Shown piece by piece: positions 3,713-64,000 of a stretch of DNA of 64,000 nucleotides; position 1 is the first letter of the stretch; each line of letters opens with the position of its first letter. Under the pieces are notes generated by a model, which saw only the letters and a program-made list of their open reading frames with translations, was not told where the DNA came from and made no database searches. Source of the DNA: an uncultured Gammaproteobacteria bacterium (lineage in GTDB: Bacteria > Patescibacteriota > Microgenomatia > Levybacterales > UBA12049); the NCBI GenBank assembly GCA_964416505.1, contig CAYQEJ010000004.1:59331-123330 (forward strand), in the 5' to 3' direction. A program made the position numbers and the translations under genes.

Positions 3713-5161
3713 AAAATGAAGAAGCTTGGATTCACTCTATCATTCCTAATATTCTCAGCACTGTTTTTATTCGTTATTTTTTATCATACTCATGGAATTG
3801 TTCCATATGACGAAGGATGGTTTTTGCAGGCAGGAAAAAGATTACTAAATGGAGAAAAAATTTATAAAGATTTTGAATTTCTTTATAATCCAGGTGGAGC
3901 TTATTTAAATAAAATTGCTTTTAAGCTTTTAGGGGAATCTGTATTATCTTCAAGAATTATTGCTATTCTAAATACAACAGTATCTGTAATTTTCCTATTT
4001 AAAATATTTAGAAAAATAGAATTAAATGGAATTATTTCTTTGATTTTACTTTTTTCATTTGTTTTTTGGGGGGCAGGCCACATAAATTTTATTTGGCCTG
4101 TAATGATATGCTTAACCTTCGCAATAATATCGATATATTTATTCATAAGTTATTCTAATAAAGAAAGTTATTTTTTACTGGGAGTTCTTACATTTTTTAC
4201 TTTTTTCTTCAAACAAAACTTTGGCCTAGCCATATTTATAGCAAATATTATTTCAATACTTTTACTAAATAAAGAAAAATTTAAAAAAATTAAATTTTAT
4301 ATTTTAGGAATTATTTTTTTATTAATAGTACAAATAATTTACTTTTTAAACCTAGGAATACTTTCAGATTACTTAAAAGATATTTATTTTTATACATACG
4401 TTAAAATTTTTAAAGAAGGTGTTTTAAATTCAGACCTCCCATGGAATTACCCGGCACCCATATTTATTCAATTTTTTAAATTAGTTTTGTACTCATCGCC
4501 AATACTTATTTCATTATTTTCCATTTATTTAGTTGGGAATAAAAAAAATTTACTTTATATACCAATTATAATTATTTGTTTTTCGCTTCTAAGTATTAGG
4601 CCTACTACAGATTTTATTCATTTGACTCCTTTAATTTCACTTTCATTAATCTCGCTTGGTTTAATTTACATTCAAATAAAAAATTTATTTACAAAATTAA
4701 TAATCCTTATATTCTTTGTTTTTGTTTTTAGTTTTGGATTATATTCATCTTTCTATAGAAATTATTACAGATGGAATCCTCCTTTGGTGGGAAATAAATT
4801 CTATATTGAAAACAAACATGTAAAAATCTGGGCAGATAAAAAGGAATTTGAAAATATAAGTTTTTTAGAAAACCAACTTAAATCCTACCATGACGAAGAA
4901 GTATTTATTTATAATTTCGCCCCAATTTACTACTTAACTCTTGATAAGAATAATGCTACAAGATTTGATTATCTTCATAGTGGAATGATTTCCGAAAGTA
5001 ATGAGAATGAGATAATAATGGATTTAAATAAAAAGAAAACACGAATTATTATTTCCAATATTAATGTTTTTATTACTAGAACTAAAGTTGCTAGATATAT
5101 ACTAAGCAAATACAAACCAATAAAATCTGCAAATGAAATAACAGTTTGGAAATTGGATTAA
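3713..5161 (+). CDS. GT-C fold glycosyltransferase (ArnT/PMT family 39/83-like) integral membrane protein. The start is taken at MKKLGF rather than the track's upstream M.
   Basis: The N-terminal TM is followed by a loop YDEGWFLQAGKRLLNGEKIY, the DE motif typical of ArnT/PMT. Many TM helices follow. The upstream start in the track would overlap the convergent gene. Confidence 0.5.
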   Translation, partial: KMKKLGFTLSFLIFSALFLFVIFYHTHGIVPYDEGWFLQAGKRLLNGEKIYKDFEFLYNPGGAYLNKIAFKLLGESVLSSRIIAILNTTVSVIFLFKIFRKIELNGIISLILLFSFVFWGAGHINFIWPVMICLTFAIISIYLFISYSNKESYFLLGVLTFFTFFFKQNFGLAIFIANIISILLLNKEKFKKIKFYILGIIFLLIVQIIYFLNLGILSDYLKDIYFYTYVKIFKEGVLNSDLPWNYPAPIFIQFFKLVLYSSPILISLFSIYLVGNKKNLLYIPIIIICFSLLSIRPTTDFIHLTPLISLSLISLGLIYIQIKNLFTKLIILIFFVFVFSFGLYSSFYRNYYRWNPPLVGNKFYIENKHVKIWADKKEFENISFLENQLKSYHDEEVFIYNFAPIYYLTLDKNNATRFDYLHSGMISESNENEIIMDLNKKKTRIIISNINVFITRTKVARYILSKYKPIKSANEITVWKLD

Positions 5162-6147
5162 TTTTTCCAATTTTGTGGAAGAAGAGGACTACTTAACTCA
5201 ACTTCTTGAAATTTAGGTTTTTGATGCCCCTTCTTCTTTGCCCATCCCCATGTCTTTATTAATCCCTTTTCCAAATCAGTTCTATCTTTATACGCCAAAT
5301 ACTTTTTACTTAATCTATGATCACTTATTGCCTCTTTTACTTCCTGCGGCCTTTCTGGAAGATGAATGGGATTAATTTTGGAATTAGATATTTTAGATAT
5401 TAAATTTGCTAATTCATTTACAGTGTAGACATTGTCTGAACCTATATTAAACGTCATTCCATTTACTTTATTTCCCAGACATTTCACCAAGGCATCAACT
5501 ACATCATCTATATATGAGAAACATCTTTTTTGATTTCCTTTTCCATAAATATAATAAGGTTTATTTGCAAGAATAGAATTCATAAAAATTGTCACTACGT
5601 TTCTATATGGATCCTTCATGTTCTGTCTGGGACCATAAACATTGTGAGGTCTTGCTACAACAAAATCAAAATTGTGAATTTTACTTAAAATTTTTAATGC
5701 ATCTTCAAATGCTAGTTTTGAAATTCCATATAAATCTTCCGGCTTAGGCGTATCTTTTTCTTTAAAAGGTATTTGAAGACTACCATAAACAGCTATGCTT
5801 GAAGTAAAAATGAATTTTTTCATTCCACTTCTTATTCCAGCTGTTAATACTTTAATGCTGCCGTCAAAATTTCTAGAAGTTATGTCTACAGGTGAAAATT
5901 GAGCTTTATTTTCTGCGGCATTTGCAGCAAGATGATATATAACATCTGGTTTATATTCTGAAAGAATTTTATCTATTTTTTTAAAATTTCTTATATCTAC
6001 TTTTACTAACTTAGCTTTTTTATTGCAATTTTCTAAACTTCCTCCAGAAAAATCATCTAAAATTAAAACCTTATGTCCTTTAACAATCAATTTATCAACT
6101 AAATGACTTCCTATAAATCCTGCTCCACCTGTAACTACTATCTTCAT
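5158..6147 (-). CDS. NAD-dependent sugar-nucleotide epimerase/dehydratase (short-chain dehydrogenase/reductase (SDR) family).
   Basis: The N-terminus has MKIVVTGGAGFIGSHLVDKL (a Rossmann GxxGxxG motif). A YxxxK motif is present. The length of 329 aa fits. Confidence 0.8.
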   Translation of the reverse strand: MKIVVTGGAGFIGSHLVDKLIVKGHKVLILDDFSGGSLENCNKKAKLVKVDIRNFKKIDKILSEYKPDVIYHLAANAAENKAQFSPVDITSRNFDGSIKVLTAGIRSGMKKFIFTSSIAVYGSLQIPFKEKDTPKPEDLYGISKLAFEDALKILSKIHNFDFVVARPHNVYGPRQNMKDPYRNVVTIFMNSILANKPYYIYGKGNQKRCFSYIDDVVDALVKCLGNKVNGMTFNIGSDNVYTVNELANLISKISNSKINPIHLPERPQEVKEAISDHRLSKKYLAYKDRTDLEKGLIKTWGWAKKKGHQKPKFQEVELSSPLLPQNWKN

Positions 6148-41946: not shown

Positions 41947-42094
41947 AAACTAAGAATAAAAAGAAATTCGGAAATAAATCCGGAAGCTTATCCTTCTATC
42001 AAATTGAGGTATAAATTAGATTTCATAATCCTCTTTTGACAATTTCTTCTTGTCTAATGCGTATTATATTACTTATGCTTTAGAAAATCAAAGT

Positions 42095-42125
42095 TAGCCT
42101 CGCAAGGCCAGGCCTTGCGAGGCTA
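42095..42125. repeat. GC-rich perfect palindrome TAGCCTCGCAAGGCC-a-GGCCTTGCGAGGCTA, repeat family copy 1. It lies downstream of recX.
   Basis: 15-bp perfect arms. Near-identical copies occur at 62621 and 63651. The GC-rich element stands out against an AT-rich background. Confidence 0.85.
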
Positions 42126-42152
42126 ATGAAATACAATTCTTTAATTAAAAAT

Positions 42153-49453: not shown

Positions 49454-50212
49454 TTATTTTGTTAAGATTTCTACGCCACCTTCAGATACTAATACTGTTC
49501 TTTCGAAAAGACCTGATAAAGAGCCATCTTCAGTCGAAATTGTCCAGTTGTCATCATTATAATATTTAACTTCAAAACTACCCATATTATAAATTACTTC
49601 TACAGCAATGGTCATACCTTCTTTAAGTAGAGGGGTTTTCTCAATTTTTTTATTTAAATAACCTGGAACCTCTGGATCTTCATGTAAATTTCTCCCAACA
49701 CCATGCCCAATAAGACTCCTAACTACAGAGTATCCATTTTCTTTTTCAACAATATCCTGGATCGTTTTGGAAATATGACCAATACGATTTCCCGGCATAA
49801 CTTGTAAAATAGCTTCATTTAGAGCTCTTTCTCCCACTTCAAGAAACTTTTCTAATTCAGAACTTTTTTTATTACCTACAATTTTTGAATGAGACATGTC
49901 CGTATGAAAACCTTTATAAAAAACTCCACAATCTACTCCTACAATATCTCCATCTTTAAATACATAGTTGCTAGGAATTCCATGAACCACTACATCATTC
50001 GTAGAGATGCAAGTTGCATATGAATAGCCCTCTACTTTTTTGAATCCAGGTTCTCCTCCTTTTTCAACAATTAGTCGATCAGCTAAAGCATCTACTTCTT
50101 TCTCCGAAACACCGGGTTTTATAAAATCCATTACCTCCCATAATGTTTCAGCAAGAATTTTGCCTCCTGCTCTCATTATTTCAATTTCTTCTTTTGTCTT
50201 TATATCAACCAT
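49454..50212 (-). CDS. map: Methionine aminopeptidase type I.
   Basis: The pita-bread fold is indicated by the D, D, H, E, E metal ligands (...VVHGIP..., ...DCGV..., ...HGVG...). Confidence 0.9.
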   Translation of the reverse strand: MVDIKTKEEIEIMRAGGKILAETLWEVMDFIKPGVSEKEVDALADRLIVEKGGEPGFKKVEGYSYATCISTNDVVVHGIPSNYVFKDGDIVGVDCGVFYKGFHTDMSHSKIVGNKKSSELEKFLEVGERALNEAILQVMPGNRIGHISKTIQDIVEKENGYSVVRSLIGHGVGRNLHEDPEVPGYLNKKIEKTPLLKEGMTIAVEVIYNMGSFEVKYYNDDNWTISTEDGSLSGLFERTVLVSEGGVEILTK

Positions 50213-50753
50213 AAATATAGCTAATTATTTTATTATGAATCTCGTCAATTGGACCAGTTCCATCAATTTCTCTTAAAAGTCCTTCTTTTTTATAGAACTC
50301 AAGAACTTTTTCTCTATCTCTATCCTGATTTTCCCTTCTCTTTAAAACTATTTCTGGCTTATCGTCATCCCTTCCGCGATAAACCATTCTCTTTAACATT
50401 TCTTCTTTAGAAATATTTAAATAAAAAACATAATCAACCTTAAGTTTTTTTTCTTTAATATAATTATTAAAAGTCTCTAAGTCTTCTTGTGTACCAGGAA
50501 AATTATCAATTATACAGCCATTTACCGTTTCCTCAATTTTATCTTTTAAAAGCTCGAATTTAAGATTAACTGGAACATGCATTCCTTTCATGCTATATTT
50601 TTCAAATCCTTCAACTGCCCTAGGGTCTTTTCTTTCATATGCATCTCGAATCAAAGCACCCATAGAAAAAACTGGCAAGTTAATTCTTCCCCCCAACATT
50701 TTTGCTTGAGTATCTTTTCCTGAAAAAGGCGGACCAGTAAAAATAATTATCAT
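50205..50753 (-). CDS. Adenylate-kinase-like NMP kinase paralog (short type, possibly a UMP/CMP or second adenylate kinase).
   Basis: GPPFSGKDTQA (P-loop), DNFPGTQEDL (NMP-binding) and RGRDDDKPEIVLKRRE (a LID-less RxDD motif) are present. Confidence 0.6.
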   Translation of the reverse strand: MIIIFTGPPFSGKDTQAKMLGGRINLPVFSMGALIRDAYERKDPRAVEGFEKYSMKGMHVPVNLKFELLKDKIEETVNGCIIDNFPGTQEDLETFNNYIKEKKLKVDYVFYLNISKEEMLKRMVYRGRDDDKPEIVLKRRENQDRDREKVLEFYKKEGLLREIDGTGPIDEIHNKIISYIYG

Positions 50754-51310
50754 AATTTATTAAAAAGCTCTTCCAATTTTTCTTCTAAATTTCCTCCATT
50801 GTTTGAAATAAAATAATCAGCAACTGCAAAACACTTAGCTACCTGTAAACCATTAATTTCATTTTCAGAAATTCCTAAATCTCTATAATCAAGCCTATCG
50901 AAAAGCTCAGGTGTAAGTTCTTCTCGATTTTTTATTTTTTTTACTCTTTCGAATCTTATTTTTCTATCTGCTACAATTCCAAGCAATATAAATTTTTCAA
51001 ACTTCTTTAACTCTTCTATTTCACCTAAATTTCTTATTCCATCAATTACTGCTCTTTCAATATTATTTTCTCTAATAAAGTCGATTGCTTTTTTTGCCAG
51101 AACCCCAGCTCCTTCATTTTTTCTCCATAAATTCCCTAAGTCTTGCAGATTATTCCTAGTTATTTCTTTTTTATTTTTCGAGAGCTCTTTCTCAAGAAAT
51201 GATGAAAGAGTTATTTTAGTAAAATCTTTTGCTTGAAAAAAAGAAGCTGCGGTAGATTTTCCGCTACCAAATGGCCCGGTAATTCCTATAACAGTTACAT
51301 TCCCATTCAC
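50750..51310 (-). CDS. P-loop nucleoside/nucleotide kinase (dephospho-CoA-kinase-like or other small kinase).
   Basis: VIGITGPFGSGKSTAASFF is a Walker A. The 186-aa protein is all-alpha/beta and sits between adk and the adk-like gene with 4-nt overlaps. Confidence 0.4.
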   Translation of the reverse strand: MNGNVTVIGITGPFGSGKSTAASFFQAKDFTKITLSSFLEKELSKNKKEITRNNLQDLGNLWRKNEGAGVLAKKAIDFIRENNIERAVIDGIRNLGEIEELKKFEKFILLGIVADRKIRFERVKKIKNREELTPELFDRLDYRDLGISENEINGLQVAKCFAVADYFISNNGGNLEEKLEELFNKL

Positions 51311-51852
51311 TTCTGAATACTCCTGAGAATTTCTTTTGTAATATCTTCAACCGACTGTTCGCCATCAATCTCTATTAACTGTCCCTTTTCTCTATAATAT
51401 TCAATAACTGGTTCTGTAAATTTATGAAAAAGATCAATTCTTTTTCTAATGGCGATGAGCGTCTCATCCTCTCTTTCTGCTTCTCTTCCTGAAATCCTCC
51501 ATAGAGCTTCCTTATCTGAGATCTTTAAATAAATTACTTTATCAATTCCATTCTTAAAACTTTTAGCTTGAACTAAAGTTCTTGGATATCCATCCATAAT
51601 ATAACCTTTTTCATATTCTGAACGAGAAAGATAATCACTTACAATCTTATTTGTTTTTTTATCAGAGATAAGAAGTCCTGCATTCATAACCAACTTTATT
51701 TGACGTCCAAGTGGAGAATGCTCTTTAGCAAGATTTCTAAAAATATGTCCTGTTGATAAATATGGAATACCAAGTTTTTCAGAAAGATTATTTCCCTGTG
51801 TAGATTTTCCTGATCCTTGTATTCCAATTAAAATTAATTTCATCAAAATCAC
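51307..51852 (-). CDS. adk: Adenylate kinase (short form).
   Basis: MKLILIGIQGSGKSTQGNNL..., ...DGYPRT..QA... and its position right after secY fit adk. Confidence 0.85.
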   Translation of the reverse strand: MILMKLILIGIQGSGKSTQGNNLSEKLGIPYLSTGHIFRNLAKEHSPLGRQIKLVMNAGLLISDKKTNKIVSDYLSRSEYEKGYIMDGYPRTLVQAKSFKNGIDKVIYLKISDKEALWRISGREAEREDETLIAIRKRIDLFHKFTEPVIEYYREKGQLIEIDGEQSVEDITKEILRSIQK

Positions 51853-60119: not shown

Positions 60120-60907
60120 TATTTAGCACTCCTTTTTACTCCGCCAAGCGGAGCTAAAACTTCAACTGATTCTTTCATAAAAAGTATATTTTTATTTTTC
60201 AAAACCTCATAAGTATTTAAAAGTTTTGCATTCATAACTTCTACGTTTTTTATATTCCTTGCAGCTCTATAAACATTTGGTAATTCTTTTGGATTTGCAG
60301 AAATTACGAGCAAAACTCTATTCTTTGACTTTACATCTTCAGTTACTTTTACAATTAATTGATTCATGTTTTTTGTTTTTGCTTCTATCTTATCTAAACC
60401 CGAAAGAACAGTAATAGATCCTTCTTTTGCTTTTAGAGAAAGAGCGGATAAAAGAGCTGCTTTTTTCATTTTCTGAGGCATAGAAAGAGAATAATCTCTT
60501 AATCTTGGTCCATGAGCAACTCCTCCCTTTACAAAAATCGGAGCTCTCTTTCCTCCATGTCTTGCTCCACCTGTTCCTTTTTGTCTATAAATTTTCTTAG
60601 TTGATCCTATTACCTCTCCTCTTGTTAAGGTCTTAGCAGATCCTATTCTCTGATTTGCTAGATAAACCCTAACAGCTTGAGCCATGAGAGCATCATTTAT
60701 TTTTCCACCAAATACTTCTTTAGGAAGTGAAAATGTTCCATTTTTAGCACCTTTTACATCAAACATTGGGGCGTTCAAACCAGACACTTTTACTTCTGCT
60801 TCTACTTTTTCTGTTTTCGTAACTTTTGATACAGCAACCTTTTTAGCTGCTGCCTTTTTTACGGGTGTTTTTACTTCTTTAATTGTTTTTGTTTTACTTG
60901 TCGCCAT
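60119..60907 (-). CDS. rplD: 50S ribosomal protein L4 with a Lys/Ala-rich N-terminal extension.
   Basis: ...VSGLNAPMFDVKGAKNG...LANQRIGSAKTLTRGEV... An extra basic N-terminus of about 40-50 aa is present. Confidence 0.9.
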   Translation of the reverse strand: MATSKTKTIKEVKTPVKKAAAKKVAVSKVTKTEKVEAEVKVSGLNAPMFDVKGAKNGTFSLPKEVFGGKINDALMAQAVRVYLANQRIGSAKTLTRGEVIGSTKKIYRQKGTGGARHGGKRAPIFVKGGVAHGPRLRDYSLSMPQKMKKAALLSALSLKAKEGSITVLSGLDKIEAKTKNMNQLIVKVTEDVKSKNRVLLVISANPKELPNVYRAARNIKNVEVMNAKLLNTYEVLKNKNILFMKESVEVLAPLGGVKRSAK

Positions 60908-61775
60908 CTTTTACTTCCTCCTTGTTTTCTTGATTTTCCGCTTGCTCCTCTGCTTCCGTAGATGAAGTTACTTCTTCTGCTGGAGCTACATCTTGTGCAG
61001 AGTTTTCCTCAGCTGGTTTTTCAGCTTCTAATTTTGCTGCTTCTTCTGCAGCCACTCTATCAGCTTCTTCCTGTGCTGCTTTTGCAGCTGCTTCCTCAGC
61101 TGCTACCACTTCAGGATCCCTGAAAAGAGGAACAAATTTTTTATCTTCCCCCGCTTTTTCTATAAAAATCATTCCATTAATGATCCCTGGAACAAGACCT
61201 TTAATTACTAAAACGCCGTCATTTGTAATGTCTACAATTCTCAGATTTTTAACTGTAACTGTGTCATTTCCCATTCTCCCTGCCATTCTTTTTCCTTTAT
61301 AAACTCTTCCTGGAGTTGTTCCCTGACCAATTGAACCAGGAGCTCTCCATCTATCTGACTGACCATGAGTTTTTGGTCCTCCACTAAATCCATGCCTCTT
61401 CATTCCTCCTTGAAATCCTTTTCCTTTAGAAATTCCTGTTATATTTACCAAATCTCCAGGCTGAAAAACTTCTGAAGGATTCAAAGTTACACCTAATTCT
61501 GGAAGCACTTCGTCTTCATCTTTGATTCTTACTTCTCTTAAAAATTTAGGAGCTTTTTCTAAATTAGCTCCTTTTTTTGCGTGTCCTATTTCTGCTCTAC
61601 TAGCCTTTTTCTTAGCGCTAAATCCAAGCTGCACAGCTTGGTAATGATCTTTTTCGTTAGTTTTATGAGACACTACAACATTTCCGTTAACATCCACGAG
61701 AGTAACCGGAATTCTCATTCCGTTTTCTAAAAATCTTTGACTCTGTACTTTCTTGATACCTATTAGAGACTGCAT
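60894..61775 (-). CDS. rplC: 50S ribosomal protein L3 with an Ala/Glu-rich acidic C-terminal extension. The start is taken at MQSLIGIKK.
   Basis: ...LIGIKKVQSQRF...GKGFQGGMKRHGF.... About 85 C-terminal residues are low-complexity (AAEEAAAKAAQEEADRVAAEEAAKLEAEK...). Confidence 0.9.
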   Translation of the reverse strand: MQSLIGIKKVQSQRFLENGMRIPVTLVDVNGNVVVSHKTNEKDHYQAVQLGFSAKKKASRAEIGHAKKGANLEKAPKFLREVRIKDEDEVLPELGVTLNPSEVFQPGDLVNITGISKGKGFQGGMKRHGFSGGPKTHGQSDRWRAPGSIGQGTTPGRVYKGKRMAGRMGNDTVTVKNLRIVDITNDGVLVIKGLVPGIINGMIFIEKAGEDKKFVPLFRDPEVVAAEEAAAKAAQEEADRVAAEEAAKLEAEKPAEENSAQDVAPAEEVTSSTEAEEQAENQENKEEVKDGDK

Positions 61776-61974
61776 ATAGATAAAATTTACAAACAAAAAA
61801 GCGACCACATAGTGTCGCTCAATTCCCAAGTAGAAATTAAACTCAAACAGAAACTATGTAGCTATCACCTCCTGTGTTTGTAAAGCCATTTTGTACATGT
61901 AATTATAGCTAAGCGCGTGCGTAAATGCAAGGGGAAGGGAAGAATTTAATAAGAAAAGATCCCCAAACAAACCT

Positions 61975-62541
61975 TTATGTTCTCTTTTTAATTGGAGCAC
62001 TTGCTGTGTAAGTTTTTGGATTACGCACGTAGCTACCTACTTCATATCCTAATTCTTCAGCAAGCAACCTATATGCAGATAGTTTTTCTCGATCAGTCTC
62101 AGAAATTCCTTTCGGATCAGTAAAACTACCTATTGATCCCTTTTCTGCAGCTGAATGTATGTTTTCTATCATCACTTCCCTCATGCCTGGAGGCTGCCTA
62201 TCCCAAAATCTTTGCGCATACATCTCATCCGGCTTCACTTGTTTTCCTCCTACTACTTCAACTTTTCCATCTTTACCTTTTCTTAACTGTGGTGGATGAT
62301 GCGGCTCATACATTTTCCCATCCATTACAAATGGCTTAGGAATATATGGTCCACCCGGAAGACGCCTTGCTAATGAATTAAGAGCCTGGTTAATTCCTAA
62401 GGGCCCCGTATTCAAATTAGGCTCAATTTGTCGCACAAGACCCGCATTTCCTGGATGAGGAATACTAGGAGACTTGGAAGGACTAGTAGATCCAACTGGT
62501 TCTACTGTTTTAATCGGTTCAACATCTGCCATACATACCAA
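61975..62541 (-). CDS. Hypothetical Pro-rich protein inserted between rpsJ and rplC.
   Basis: 188-aa ORF with a GC content that looks above the local average. No family recognised. Confidence 0.4.
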   Translation of the reverse strand: MVCMADVEPIKTVEPVGSTSPSKSPSIPHPGNAGLVRQIEPNLNTGPLGINQALNSLARRLPGGPYIPKPFVMDGKMYEPHHPPQLRKGKDGKVEVVGGKQVKPDEMYAQRFWDRQPPGMREVMIENIHSAAEKGSIGSFTDPKGISETDREKLSAYRLLAEELGYEVGSYVRNPKTYTASAPIKKRT

Positions 62542-62620
62542 TATAACATTTATAAACGTTATGTAAATATCTTAAGCTCGCTTAAAAATAAAATCACTTC
62601 TTTCCCGATTGATTATATTC

Positions 62621-62651
62621 TAGCCTCGCAAGGCCTGGCCTTGCGAGGCTA
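62621..62651. repeat. GC-rich perfect palindrome, repeat family copy 2 (TAGCCTCGCAAGGCC-t-GGCCTTGCGAGGCTA).
   Basis: Its arms are identical to the copy at 42095. The 3' flank AAGCGCTATAAGATATCTG resembles the flank of copy 3. Confidence 0.85.
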
Positions 62652-62690
62652 AAGCGCTATAAGATATCTGAGAATTAAATTTATCTTGGA

Positions 62691-63239
62691 TTACTTTCTT
62701 CTAATCTTCTGTGCAATTGATTCTCGAACTTTTTTCACTCTATTAACAAAGGGGTCTATCCTTCCTGAAGCAATTAATGCATTAAAAGGAATAAACCACA
62801 CAGGAATTGTTAAGGATGTTGCAATAATACTGTCAACCAAAAGCTGATTATCATGATTATAAACTGCAATGGCATTTATTGGATTCGTTAACTGAAGATA
62901 AACATGATTTCCAGCATGCTCTAGAGCAGAAGACATAACTGGCCTTCCTGTCATAATATTAAAAGTTGTTCCATAGGGACTAGCGCTATATTGTCTTTCT
63001 CTTAAATTTCTCGCTTCTAGAGCAATACTAGCAGCATTCGCTACAAACGATACCCCTATTAATGTAGCTCTTGCTAAATCCGGCGTACCACTTGACAGTA
63101 AATGCGTAGCTGTAGTTAAACCTGCTTCTATTGGAAGTATTGATGGAATTGATGCTGTAAAAATCGCTGAAGTAACAGCAATTCCTTCTGGATTTATTCT
63201 ACCTTTGGCTGATTGATATCTCTCTCTAACGCTTGGCAT
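62691..63239 (-). CDS. Hypothetical protein, possibly membrane-associated, inserted between rpsJ and rplC.
   Basis: 182-aa ORF with hydrophobic stretches. No family recognised. Confidence 0.4.
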   Translation of the reverse strand: MPSVRERYQSAKGRINPEGIAVTSAIFTASIPSILPIEAGLTTATHLLSSGTPDLARATLIGVSFVANAASIALEARNLRERQYSASPYGTTFNIMTGRPVMSSALEHAGNHVYLQLTNPINAIAVYNHDNQLLVDSIIATSLTIPVWFIPFNALIASGRIDPFVNRVKKVRESIAQKIRRK

Positions 63240-63263
63240 ATGCCGGCAATTATAGCAAAGGGG

Positions 63264-63614
63264 CTATTGAATTCCTAAAATTCCTGAACCAATAATTACA
63301 GAGGCAACAGCTATTAATATAGCTACTATTATCAAAAAAAATACCATCCATATACGCTTAGTTCTTCTGTTTAAATCTTTTAAAACAATAGAATCCTGTG
63401 CGTATTGAAAGATTCTATTACATTTTAAACATCTATAAGCAACTACTCTCCTAAGATCTGTGAAATTAGCTTCATTTGTTCCAATAATATAGTTTTTTGT
63501 TCCGGACGGGACATTACCGCTTTTAGCATAACGCTGAATCAAAACTGCTCCGTAAGTACTATCGAGAATAACTCCATTTTCAAAATCTCCACCACAATCA
63601 GGACATTTTTTCAT
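63264..63614 (-). CDS. Small zinc-ribbon protein with a C-terminal TM helix.
   Basis: CPDCGG...CLKCNR forms a CxxC...CxxC ribbon. The C-terminal helix is MVFFLIIVAILIAVASVIIG. Confidence 0.45.
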   Translation of the reverse strand: MKKCPDCGGDFENGVILDSTYGAVLIQRYAKSGNVPSGTKNYIIGTNEANFTDLRRVVAYRCLKCNRIFQYAQDSIVLKDLNRRTKRIWMVFFLIIVAILIAVASVIIGSGILGIQ

Positions 63615-63650
63615 AAACTAATCATTTCAGATATTGCAAGTGAATTCAAT

Positions 63651-63681
63651 CAGCCTCGCAAGGCCAGGCCTTGCGAGACTA
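63651..63681. repeat. GC-rich palindrome, repeat family copy 3. It has one arm mismatch and lies between rpsJ and the inserted genes.
   Basis: CAGCCTCGCAAGGCC-a-GGCCTTGCGAGACTA, with the flank AAGACACTATAAGACTG. Confidence 0.8.
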
Positions 63682-63777
63682 AGACACTATAAGACTGTCA
63701 TAAAATTCACTACGAAATAATTTTCAGTGGGTAAAAAGGGTATAAGATGAAGATTAGAAAATATCAGAGAAGCAAGA

Positions 63778-64000
63778 TTACATCTTTATTTCGATGTTGA
63801 CTCCTGCTGGGAGCTCTAAATGTCCGAGGGAATCCATGGTTTTTTCTGTTGGACTAACAATATCTATAAGTCTTTTATGTACTTTAATTTCAAAATGATC
63901 TCTAGCGTCTTTATCAATGAAAGGGGACTTATTTACTGCGTAGACTGATCTTTTAGTAGGCAAAGGTATTGGTCCCACAACTTTAGCTCCGGTTCTAATA
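63778..64000 (-). CDS. rpsJ: 30S ribosomal protein S10. The N-terminus runs off the window edge, so it is partial.
   Basis: ...[72 protein letters not shown]. The frame stays open to position 64000. Confidence 0.9.

Follow-up and report, generated by a model that had tools for sequence, protein, structure and literature searches.

An accessory-gene island between rpsJ and rplC in a clade of uncultured bacteria

Introduction

The genes rpsJ (encoding ribosomal protein S10) and rplC (L3) form one of the most conserved adjacencies in bacteria. Here we describe a locus at the end of a 64,000-nucleotide (nt) stretch of DNA from an uncultured bacterium (contig CAYQEJ010000004.1; hereafter, the window), in which these two genes are set apart by three small open reading frames, namely ORF1, ORF2 and ORF3, and by a conserved putative leader RNA preceding rplC. 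The closest precedent is the invasion of gaps between concatenated translation operons by small sets of genes (PMC8046335). As in that precedent, a few unrelated genes stand here between two translation units, the flanking gene order is undisturbed, and long-distance mobile elements are not required. However, the break is at rpsJ/rplC, i.e., inside the S10 operon as it is defined in Escherichia coli and Bacilli. Its cargo, moreover, is not fixed, being hypervariable from one close relative to another, and a new conserved leader now precedes the downstream unit. Inter-operon invasion also involves two independently promoted operons (Brandis 2021), which at this locus are predicted from the conserved promoter, leader and terminator before rplC.

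Ribosomal-protein leaders are the second point of reference. The E. coli S10 leader mediates attenuation and translational control by L4, and the Bacillus subtilis infC leader mediates attenuation by L20; the E. coli leaders do not exist outside the model phyla (PMC3616713). The rplC leader resembles both in being structured, in having an intrinsic terminator and predicted terminator/antiterminator alternatives, and in preceding a large ribosomal-protein operon that contains rplD; as in leaders of the E. coli S10 type, a terminator hairpin with its U-run lies inside it (61820-61794). In contrast to the E. coli S10 leader, it is located between ORF3 and rplC and not upstream of rpsJ, and in contrast to both it has no Rfam match and includes a perfect Shine-Dalgarno sequence and a mini-ORF. 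Judging from this difference in position and from the lack of similarity, the predicted leader belongs to neither family, though it most resembles attenuators of this kind.

In cyanobacteria, plastids and archaea, rps10 forms part of the str/tuf operon and is separated from rpl3, the two units usually being far apart. Here, too, rpsJ is linked to tuf and rplC is the first gene of a unit of its own, but the two units remain neighbors and the gap between them collects accessory genes. The trp and pyrBI types are leader-peptide, or ribosome-coupled, attenuators, and the mini-ORF in the rplC leader is similarly a short reading frame whose translating ribosome would cover the antiterminator strand. 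Unlike the trp attenuator, however, it has no regulatory codons, the predicted logic is inverted (i.e., the presence of a ribosome would lead to termination), and translation of the mini-ORF is putative. Capsule and O-antigen loci, lastly, are variable loci between conserved flanking genes, with strain-specific content that includes membrane-protein and glycosyltransferase genes, as is the case here; the island differs from them in that it is tiny (1-5 genes), its cargo is not one pathway and its flanks are ribosomal. The ingredients (the invasion of inter-operon space, a variable locus with conserved genes on either side, and an attenuator in a leader) are of known kinds, while their place and combination are new; we found neither an rpsJ-rplC island nor this leader described in the searchable literature. 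We argue below that the interval is probably, though by no means certainly, an old, clade-specific plasticity zone for accessory genes at a relocated operon boundary, and not an insertion inside a working operon.

Results

The rpsJ-rplC junction is expanded throughout one clade

Coordinates refer to the whole window, and rpsJ, ORF1, ORF2, ORF3 and rplC all lie on its minus strand. The stop codon of rpsJ is at 63778 and the ATG of rplC at 61775, so that the gap comprises positions 61776-63777, or exactly 2002 nt; a preliminary description of this DNA had noted an insertion of about 2 kb with three same-strand ORFs. Only the 3' part of rpsJ, truncated by the end of the window, is present (63778-64000; Pfam Ribosomal_S10, 4.4e-24). 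The encoded S10 is 99-100% identical to that of relatives in which tuf lies directly upstream, with rpsJ following it after about 25 nt. The other flank, rplC (60894-61775; Pfam Ribosomal_L3, 1.3e-15), encodes an L3 protein of 293 amino acids (aa) with an acidic C-terminal tail and is the first gene of an L3-L4-L23-L2-S19... cluster. An assembly artefact is ruled out, because independent contigs from five sequencing runs (L001 and L092-L095, where L-numbers denote loci) have the identical gene order.

To place this interval in context, S10-L3 regions were fetched from GTDB species representatives using L3 as the query. Among the outgroup genomes that show both genes, 72 of 76 have a gap of 14-335 nt, which bears out the earlier statement that this junction is highly conserved. 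In the nearest outgroup (L010, with an L3 57% identical to that of the window) the gap is 110 nt; the closest outgroup S10 belongs to a metagenome-assembled genome of Patescibacteria. Within the window's own clade, by contrast, which is characterized by L3 proteins 75-80% and S10 proteins 95-100% identical, the junction is expanded in all members, i.e., in 12 related genomes. Where both ends are visible, the gap measures 813 nt in L008, 1095 nt in L105, 2043 nt in L104, 3255 nt in L096, 3542 nt in L002, 3579 nt in L101 and 3803 nt in L004. The comparison supports a lineage-specific acquisition, which is part of one of the two possibilities raised in the preliminary description; as put forward there, both possibilities fit the data poorly. 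Homology between clade members ends at the rpsJ stop codon and resumes a few bases before a TTGCAT-17-TATAAT promoter upstream of rplC. The clade probably consists of ultra-small bacteria similar to candidate phyla radiation (CPR) members, as indicated indirectly by a missing L30 gene, by the closest outgroup S10 and by groundwater 0.1-µm samples.

The genes found within the gap differ in nearly every genome, and amount to at least 17 families across about 12 genomes. While the window has ORF1, ORF2 and ORF3, L002 has genes for proteins of 177 and 145 aa, ORF2 and a glycosyltransferase of the PMT family; L004 has a 193-aa membrane protein, ORF2, PMT and a 231-aa protein; and L096 has a 175-aa protein, ORF1, PMT and, on the opposite strand, a 99-aa protein. 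L101 carries a 166-aa protein on the opposite strand, a Cass2/GyrI-like protein and proteins of 233 and 479 aa, and L104 a 174-aa protein, an Asp/Glu racemase and RidA. The cargo is a single gene in L008 (175 aa) and in L105 (a relative of ORF2, 35% identical). The families that are shared are nevertheless colinear: the 175-aa family precedes ORF1, which is followed by ORF2, the Cass2-like family and the 233-aa family, and ORF2 likewise precedes PMT. This combination of colinear shared families with varying content suggests that the array is old, and that differential loss together with lineage-specific gains has shaped it. ORF3 is not found at this junction in other genomes, according to the gene-family matrix, which suggests that it is one such gain. 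The preliminary description had reasoned that the insertion would be less remarkable if relatives kept the same three genes as neighbors. Two of the three are indeed conserved neighbors, but the set as a whole varies, which makes the locus more interesting rather than less. About half of the cargo across genomes consists of membrane or envelope proteins, and a strain-variable role at the cell surface is probable.

Two observations concern the junction outside the clade. In L021, whose lineage is unrelated (L3 49% identical), the S10-L3 gap measures 922 nt and contains one 172-aa ORF (5193-5711) with no known function, so the junction is occasionally breached elsewhere too. Within the 110-nt gap of L010 (5893-6000), only 8 nt separate the L3 ATG from a canonical terminator, CCCCGC-CCAA-GCGGGG plus T8; the island may therefore be younger than a control point between rpsJ and rplC.

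A conserved, predicted promoter and leader precede rplC

The predicted promoter of the rplC operon, TTGCAT-17-TATAAT (61902-61930, minus strand), has hexamers and spacing that are invariant in 13 related sequences. It is followed by a conserved, predicted leader RNA of about 100 nt (61794-61894, minus strand; predicted start at about 61894), identified from a terminator scan, the minimum-free-energy and consensus folds, and conservation. The leader includes a mini-ORF of 11 codons (61889-61854) and a predicted, perfect 10-nt Shine-Dalgarno sequence, AGGAGGTGAT (61873-61864), the sole such 10-mer in the 64 kb; shorter AGGAGG sites are found upstream of several operon-internal genes. Its terminator consists of a 7-bp stem, an 8-nt loop and U6 (-9.7 kcal/mol), and is 19 nt away from the rplC ATG. 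An inner hairpin of the consensus fold has one compensatory pair.

The lowest-energy fold of the leader is a rod (-25.8 kcal/mol, z -3.07), in which GCUACAUAGU pairs with the loop and 3' arm of the terminator (the GCUACAUAGU/ACUAUGUGGU pairing) and AGGAGGUG pairs with CGCUUUUU of the U-tract. Because the 3' arm and the U-tract of the terminator are sequestered in this fold, it would serve as an antiterminator; that is, the leader looks like a transcription attenuator of the rplC operon. Measured from the -35 box through the U-tract, the identity to relatives is 81-92%, compared with 40-61% at the fourfold-degenerate sites of rplC, and the same conservation is seen in L002, L004, L008 and L096, whose retrieval did not depend on the leader. 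Rfam gives no leader match in 61790-61900 at E <= 10 and nothing relevant in 60500-64000; at the gathering score, the whole window gives no leader match and one tRNA elsewhere. A covariance model of the leader, run against other loci as well as the S10-L3 loci of the 76 outgroup genomes, matched nothing but the window itself. Among the genomes sampled here, only the window's clade combines this leader with a split junction.

It is conceivable that this element is not an attenuator but the gene of a small RNA that stands alone, or simply a structured 5' untranslated region or a processing site, with rplC being expressed by read-through or from another start. Its promoter-to-terminator architecture and its size would fit a small RNA, the distance between the terminator and the rplC ATG is 60-250 nt in several relatives, and the antiterminator pairs show no covariation. 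However, in 13 of 13 cases the element immediately precedes rplC on a shared strand, the window shows no other promoter-like site from the terminator to rplC, and a lowest-energy fold that hides the terminator's 3' arm and U-tract is typical of attenuators. We regard the alternative as possible but rather unlikely. In L101 (~4925-5020), L103 (~590-620) and L106 (~1585-1605), a second short, conserved motif absent from the window, GCTGAGGTCGC, is found between the leader terminator and the rplC start.

Island genes have predicted promoters of their own

Nine nucleotides before the ATG of ORF2 is a predicted extended -10 promoter of the leaderless type, TGCTATAAT (63249-63257, minus strand). The exact 9-mer recurs 6-9 nt before the ATG of most island genes in relatives, at least 12 in number, where ~0.3 occurrences are expected by chance. 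Its proximity to the ATG leads to the prediction that these genes are leaderless, self-promoted cassettes. Upstream of ORF3 there is a promoter-like sequence, TTTACA-16-(TG)TATATT (62540-62567, minus strand; 10 of 12 matches, with the TG), which ends 7 nt before the ATG at 62532. Orphan TGCTATAAT boxes, with no ORF after them, are located just upstream of the rplC leader promoter in L008 (5767), L100 (1607), L102 (1022), L103 (404) and L105 (1372), and look like the scars of deleted cassettes.

The island also contains two copies of a 43-nt, GC-rich palindromic repeat, both on the minus strand, with perfect arms of 15 and 14 bp. Copy A (63652-63694; stem 63652-63681) is 97 nt after the rpsJ stop codon, and its RNA hairpin has an energy of -25.4 kcal/mol (z -5.5); copy B (62622-62664; stem 62621-62651) is 40 nt after the ORF2 stop codon (-29.2 kcal/mol, z -5.6). 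Two GC-rich palindromes had previously been described as separating the ORFs; both exist, but they lie between rpsJ and ORF1 and between ORF2 and ORF3, and there is none between ORF1 and ORF2, which are 24 nt apart. A third copy (42094-42126; -27.8 kcal/mol), ~20 kb away, lies in the spacer of recX and rny and follows the stop codon of recX by 27 nt; a diverged form of the 5' flank motif, CTTATGCTTTAG, is on the strand opposite to that of the two island copies. With three copies in 64 kb where none is expected, the palindrome is a dispersed repeat, and its multiple near-identical intergenic copies are like those of repetitive extragenic palindromes (REPs). Copies are always 18-97 nt after a stop codon, and a diverged copy in L002 retains its stem through a paired C>T/G>A change. 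The islands of most relatives are without any palindrome.

These elements share with REP-like palindromes, and with terminator hairpins that have no U-tract, the occurrence of identical, GC-rich, perfect hairpins at 3' intergenic positions of several loci; they differ from REP-like palindromes in that there are three copies in the 64 kb and no RAYT gene is seen in that window. No U-tract follows the palindromes on either strand, i.e., they do not have the form of canonical intrinsic terminators. The hairpins after rpsJ and ORF2 may nonetheless delimit or stabilize 3' ends. Strand-specific evidence from G·U pairs was considered and dropped, since the variants point in opposite directions.

These features bear on the idea, put forward in the preliminary description, that the three genes are co-transcribed with those for ribosomal proteins and would thereby be very highly expressed; that is, that they are extra members of an S10 operon read from the tuf/rpsJ promoter through to rplC, with expression at the level of ribosomal proteins. 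Such an arrangement would be in keeping with their common strand and short gaps (24-200 nt), with the absence of U-tracts after the GC hairpins, which may thus not terminate, and with the lack of a clear ORF1 promoter. But the promoter boxes directly before the ATGs of ORF2 and ORF3, a pattern that recurs for island genes of relatives, the hairpins of -25 to -29 kcal/mol after rpsJ and ORF2, the invariant promoter of rplC, and the hairpin and U6 terminator between ORF3 and rplC together indicate that the junction behaves as an operon boundary and not as the interior of one. The turnover of the cargo also fits poorly with stoichiometric co-expression with ribosomal proteins. We thus consider co-transcription improbable, and the very high expression doubtful.

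The island genes look native to their host

In comparisons of ORF2 with its relatives, codon positions 1 and 2 are 86-89% identical and fourfold sites 46-57%, a difference that indicates purifying selection. All three ORFs are real genes under purifying selection with the codon composition of the host, the substitution figures being those for ORF2. The GC content at third codon positions (GC3) is 0.19, 0.19 and 0.25 for ORF1, ORF2 and ORF3, respectively, within the range of 0.09-0.28 of 28 other genes in the window; a check of GC content and codon usage had been proposed earlier, and by GC3 all three fall in the host range. ORF3, at 41.6% GC, is relatively GC-rich, as had been noted; its excess, however, comes from codon positions 1 and 2, i.e., from its Pro/Gly content, and its GC3 is host-like.

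The other possibility in the preliminary description was an inserted mobile module. In its most specific form, this would be a recently inserted cassette flanked by miniature inverted-repeat transposable elements, an integron-like array or a prophage remnant, with the 43-nt repeats as its ends. Two direct copies of the repeat do bracket ORF1 and ORF2, a third copy is found elsewhere, the cargo is variable, and one cargo family of the relatives matches Cass2, an integron-associated protein. However, no integrase, transposase or defense domain was detected in the cargo of the window or related genomes, and no recombinase domain among the island and flanking genes of the window, L002, L004, L096, L101 and L104. 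Neither repeats flanking the whole interval nor att-like flanks were found. The palindrome is missing from most relatives' islands, and scans of viral contigs with ORF1, ORF2, ORF3 and the palindrome revealed no relatives. Moreover, ORF2 is 84% and 78% identical in amino-acid sequence to its counterparts in L002 and L004, respectively, while L3 is 80% and 79% identical; this similar divergence, and the presence of ORF1 and ORF2 at the same junction in relatives, argue against an inserted module. Together with the host-like GC3, these results make a recent mobile insertion very unlikely.

Three specific candidates were likewise rejected. An integron array, suggested by the cassette-like ORFs and the Cass2-like protein, is contradicted by the absence of IntI and of attC-like sites and by the ORFs having their own TGCTATAAT promoters. 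An integrative mobile element or genomic island is contradicted by the absence of mobility genes and of repeats flanking the interval, and by GC3 values in the host range. An anti-phage defense island was discarded after PADLOC found no match to known defense families for 10 cargo proteins. NCBIfam, applied to the cargo proteins, gave no named family beyond the PMT-like glycosyltransferase.

The proteins encoded in the island

Homologs were sought in a collection of 5.8 billion proteins, and for ORF2 also with a profile against 1.84 billion representatives. ORF1 (63264-63614, minus strand; 116 aa) was initially described as a zinc-ribbon protein with a C-terminal transmembrane segment, and this description holds: it has CxxC...CxxC pairs, matches Pfam DUF6487 (PF20097) at residues 4-69 marginally above the gathering threshold (25.2 bits against a cut-off of 24), and has a hydrophobic segment at residues 83-116. 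It is thus predicted to be a membrane-anchored zinc ribbon. There are four homologs (P0019-P0022; 49-97% identity), one of which, P0022, has a precomputed PF20097 match; in L096, a homolog is found at the same rpsJ-rplC junction.

ORF2 (62691-63239, minus strand; 182 aa) has 12 close homologs (65-98% identity), and the profile search yielded a family of 66 clusters, all full-length. The profile had no meaningful match among PDB sequences, nor did Pfam on 53 family members. With an alignment of 53 sequences, AlphaFold2 produced a confident all-helical model (pLDDT 94.8, pTM 0.86), whereas a shallow alignment of 13 sequences gave a pLDDT of 35. Foldseek found no match to this model in the PDB (best TM score below 0.3). 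The protein has three long, moderately hydrophobic helices, and is probably a membrane-embedded member of an uncharacterized family. In L002 and L004, its gene is directly upstream of that for the PMT-family glycosyltransferase.

ORF3 (61975-62532, minus strand) consists of a Pro-rich, poorly conserved N-terminal half and a conserved C-terminal domain of ~90 aa, with the motif RFWxRQPxGMRE...DREKLSAYRxLAxELGYEVG. Its length had been given as 188 aa, which applies if translation begins at a TTG (61975-62541); a start at the ATG at 62532, which yields 185 aa, appears more likely from the sequence, because the homolog P0013 begins with MADVEP. Six homologs were identified (P0013-P0018). Neither Pfam, NCBIfam nor PADLOC has a match for ORF3, and its C-terminal domain is without known relatives. 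A distant homolog, P0018, is encoded in L088 (2589-5827), where adk and map lie upstream and the gene immediately before it encodes a 939-aa DUF8128/DUF87 ATPase; in another lineage, therefore, a homolog of ORF3 also adjoins a cluster of translation genes. The more distant homologs of ORF1, ORF2 and ORF3 are at unrelated genome positions in other lineages. Although ORF2 and ORF3 have no functional annotation, the notion that the ORFs are spurious and the spacer non-coding can be dismissed, given that all three have homologs, with identities down to 35-65%, that substitutions bear the mark of purifying selection, that each alternative reading frame has 12-24 stop codons and that the model of ORF2 is confident.

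Discussion

Taken together, the clade-wide expansion, the colinear but variable cargo and the conserved promoter and leader before rplC are what lead us to favor an old plasticity zone at a relocated operon boundary. Several points weigh against this reading. The promoters, the role of the hairpins as terminators (they have no U-tract) and the attenuation are all predictions, and transcription of ORF1, which lacks a convincing promoter, may come from tuf-rpsJ by read-through. Eight of the 13 leader sequences were retrieved through an exact 20-nt match within the leader, which inflates the apparent conservation there, and most of the leader's pairs are invariant, so that support from covariation is minimal. 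A long-range helix was also considered, formed by the mini-ORF's variable codon-3 region and the tail that follows the U-tract, but it failed an energy test in which tails were swapped; in L104, where CTAAC/GTTAG seemed to compensate, the energies are -33.9 kcal/mol with its own tail and -32.8 kcal/mol with the swapped one, with mixed ranks. The assignment of surface functions is based on hydrophobicity, one high-confidence model with no fold match, and neighbors in other genomes; and the cargo of L104 is metabolic (racemase and RidA), which does not fit a surface role.

If the interval is a plasticity zone of this kind, a plausible history is that rpsJ stayed with tuf and that rplC came to have a promoter and an attenuator-like leader of its own. 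What separates the two would thereby have become inter-operon space and then a plasticity zone. The island genes would be expressed as independent units, ORF2 and ORF3 from leaderless mRNAs, and differential loss, with a gain now and then, would have given the old array its form; homologous exchange may be favored by the flanks, tuf-rpsJ on one side and leader-rplC on the other, which are highly conserved. In the leader, the 5' strand, which comprises the Shine-Dalgarno sequence and the end of the mini-ORF, would act as the antiterminator by pairing with the terminator's loop, 3' arm and U-tract. Any occupant of this strand would let the terminator form, and hence reduce transcription of the ribosomal-protein genes. 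The strand could be occupied by a 30S subunit, by a ribosome engaged in translation or by one of the ribosomal proteins, e.g., L4; the Shine-Dalgarno sequence and the mini-ORF make the ribosome itself a possible effector.

A bolder and, in our view, doubtful extension of this scheme is that the leader represents a new class of attenuator that senses free ribosomes directly, and that its creation opened the junction to the exchange of cassettes without a recombinase. A 30S subunit, or a ribosome on the 11-codon mini-ORF, would bind the 10-nt Shine-Dalgarno sequence and so free the terminator from the antiterminator, in which AGGAGG is paired with the terminator's U-tract; surplus translation capacity would in this way shut off ~20 ribosomal-protein genes. 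Being autonomous, the element would have opened the junction to leaderless accessory cassettes, which would enter by homologous recombination between the flanks.

On the reading that we favor, i.e., a relocated operon boundary that has become a plasticity zone, a whole clade has turned one of the most conserved bacterial adjacencies into a place where accessory genes are gained and swapped. That a junction can be converted in a whole clade implies that a core translation cluster can host a plasticity zone once its transcriptional control is re-wired. The locus, with its conserved flanks and variable center, is also a compact marker for strain typing and for following gene flux in the reduced genomes of uncultured bacteria. 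It provides a set of uncharacterized small membrane or envelope proteins that are likely relevant to surface variation, including one family with a confident model that matches no known fold. Finally, the constrained, unannotated leader RNA is a candidate for the regulation of ribosomal proteins outside the model phyla.

Additional observations

The L3 and L4 proteins encoded downstream of the island are both extended. L3 has an acidic, Ala/Glu-rich C-terminal tail of ~70 aa (60894-61100, minus strand), and L4 a Lys/Ala-rich N-terminal extension of ~45 aa (60770-60907, minus strand); in relatives, the tails are of like character but diverged sequence. In the spc cluster, the S5 gene is followed directly by that for L15, with no L30 gene (53155-54107, minus strand); a missing L30 is a trait reported for CPR bacteria. 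In L002 (18049-18757), the L5 gene is split into pieces of 126 and 84 aa, through either a frameshift or an assembly error. Lastly, secY is followed in the window by three tandem genes for P-loop kinases resembling adenylate kinase (50205-51852, minus strand), where bacteria usually have a single adk; the products are 181 aa (ADK), 186 aa (AAA_18 only) and 182 aa (ADK) in length.

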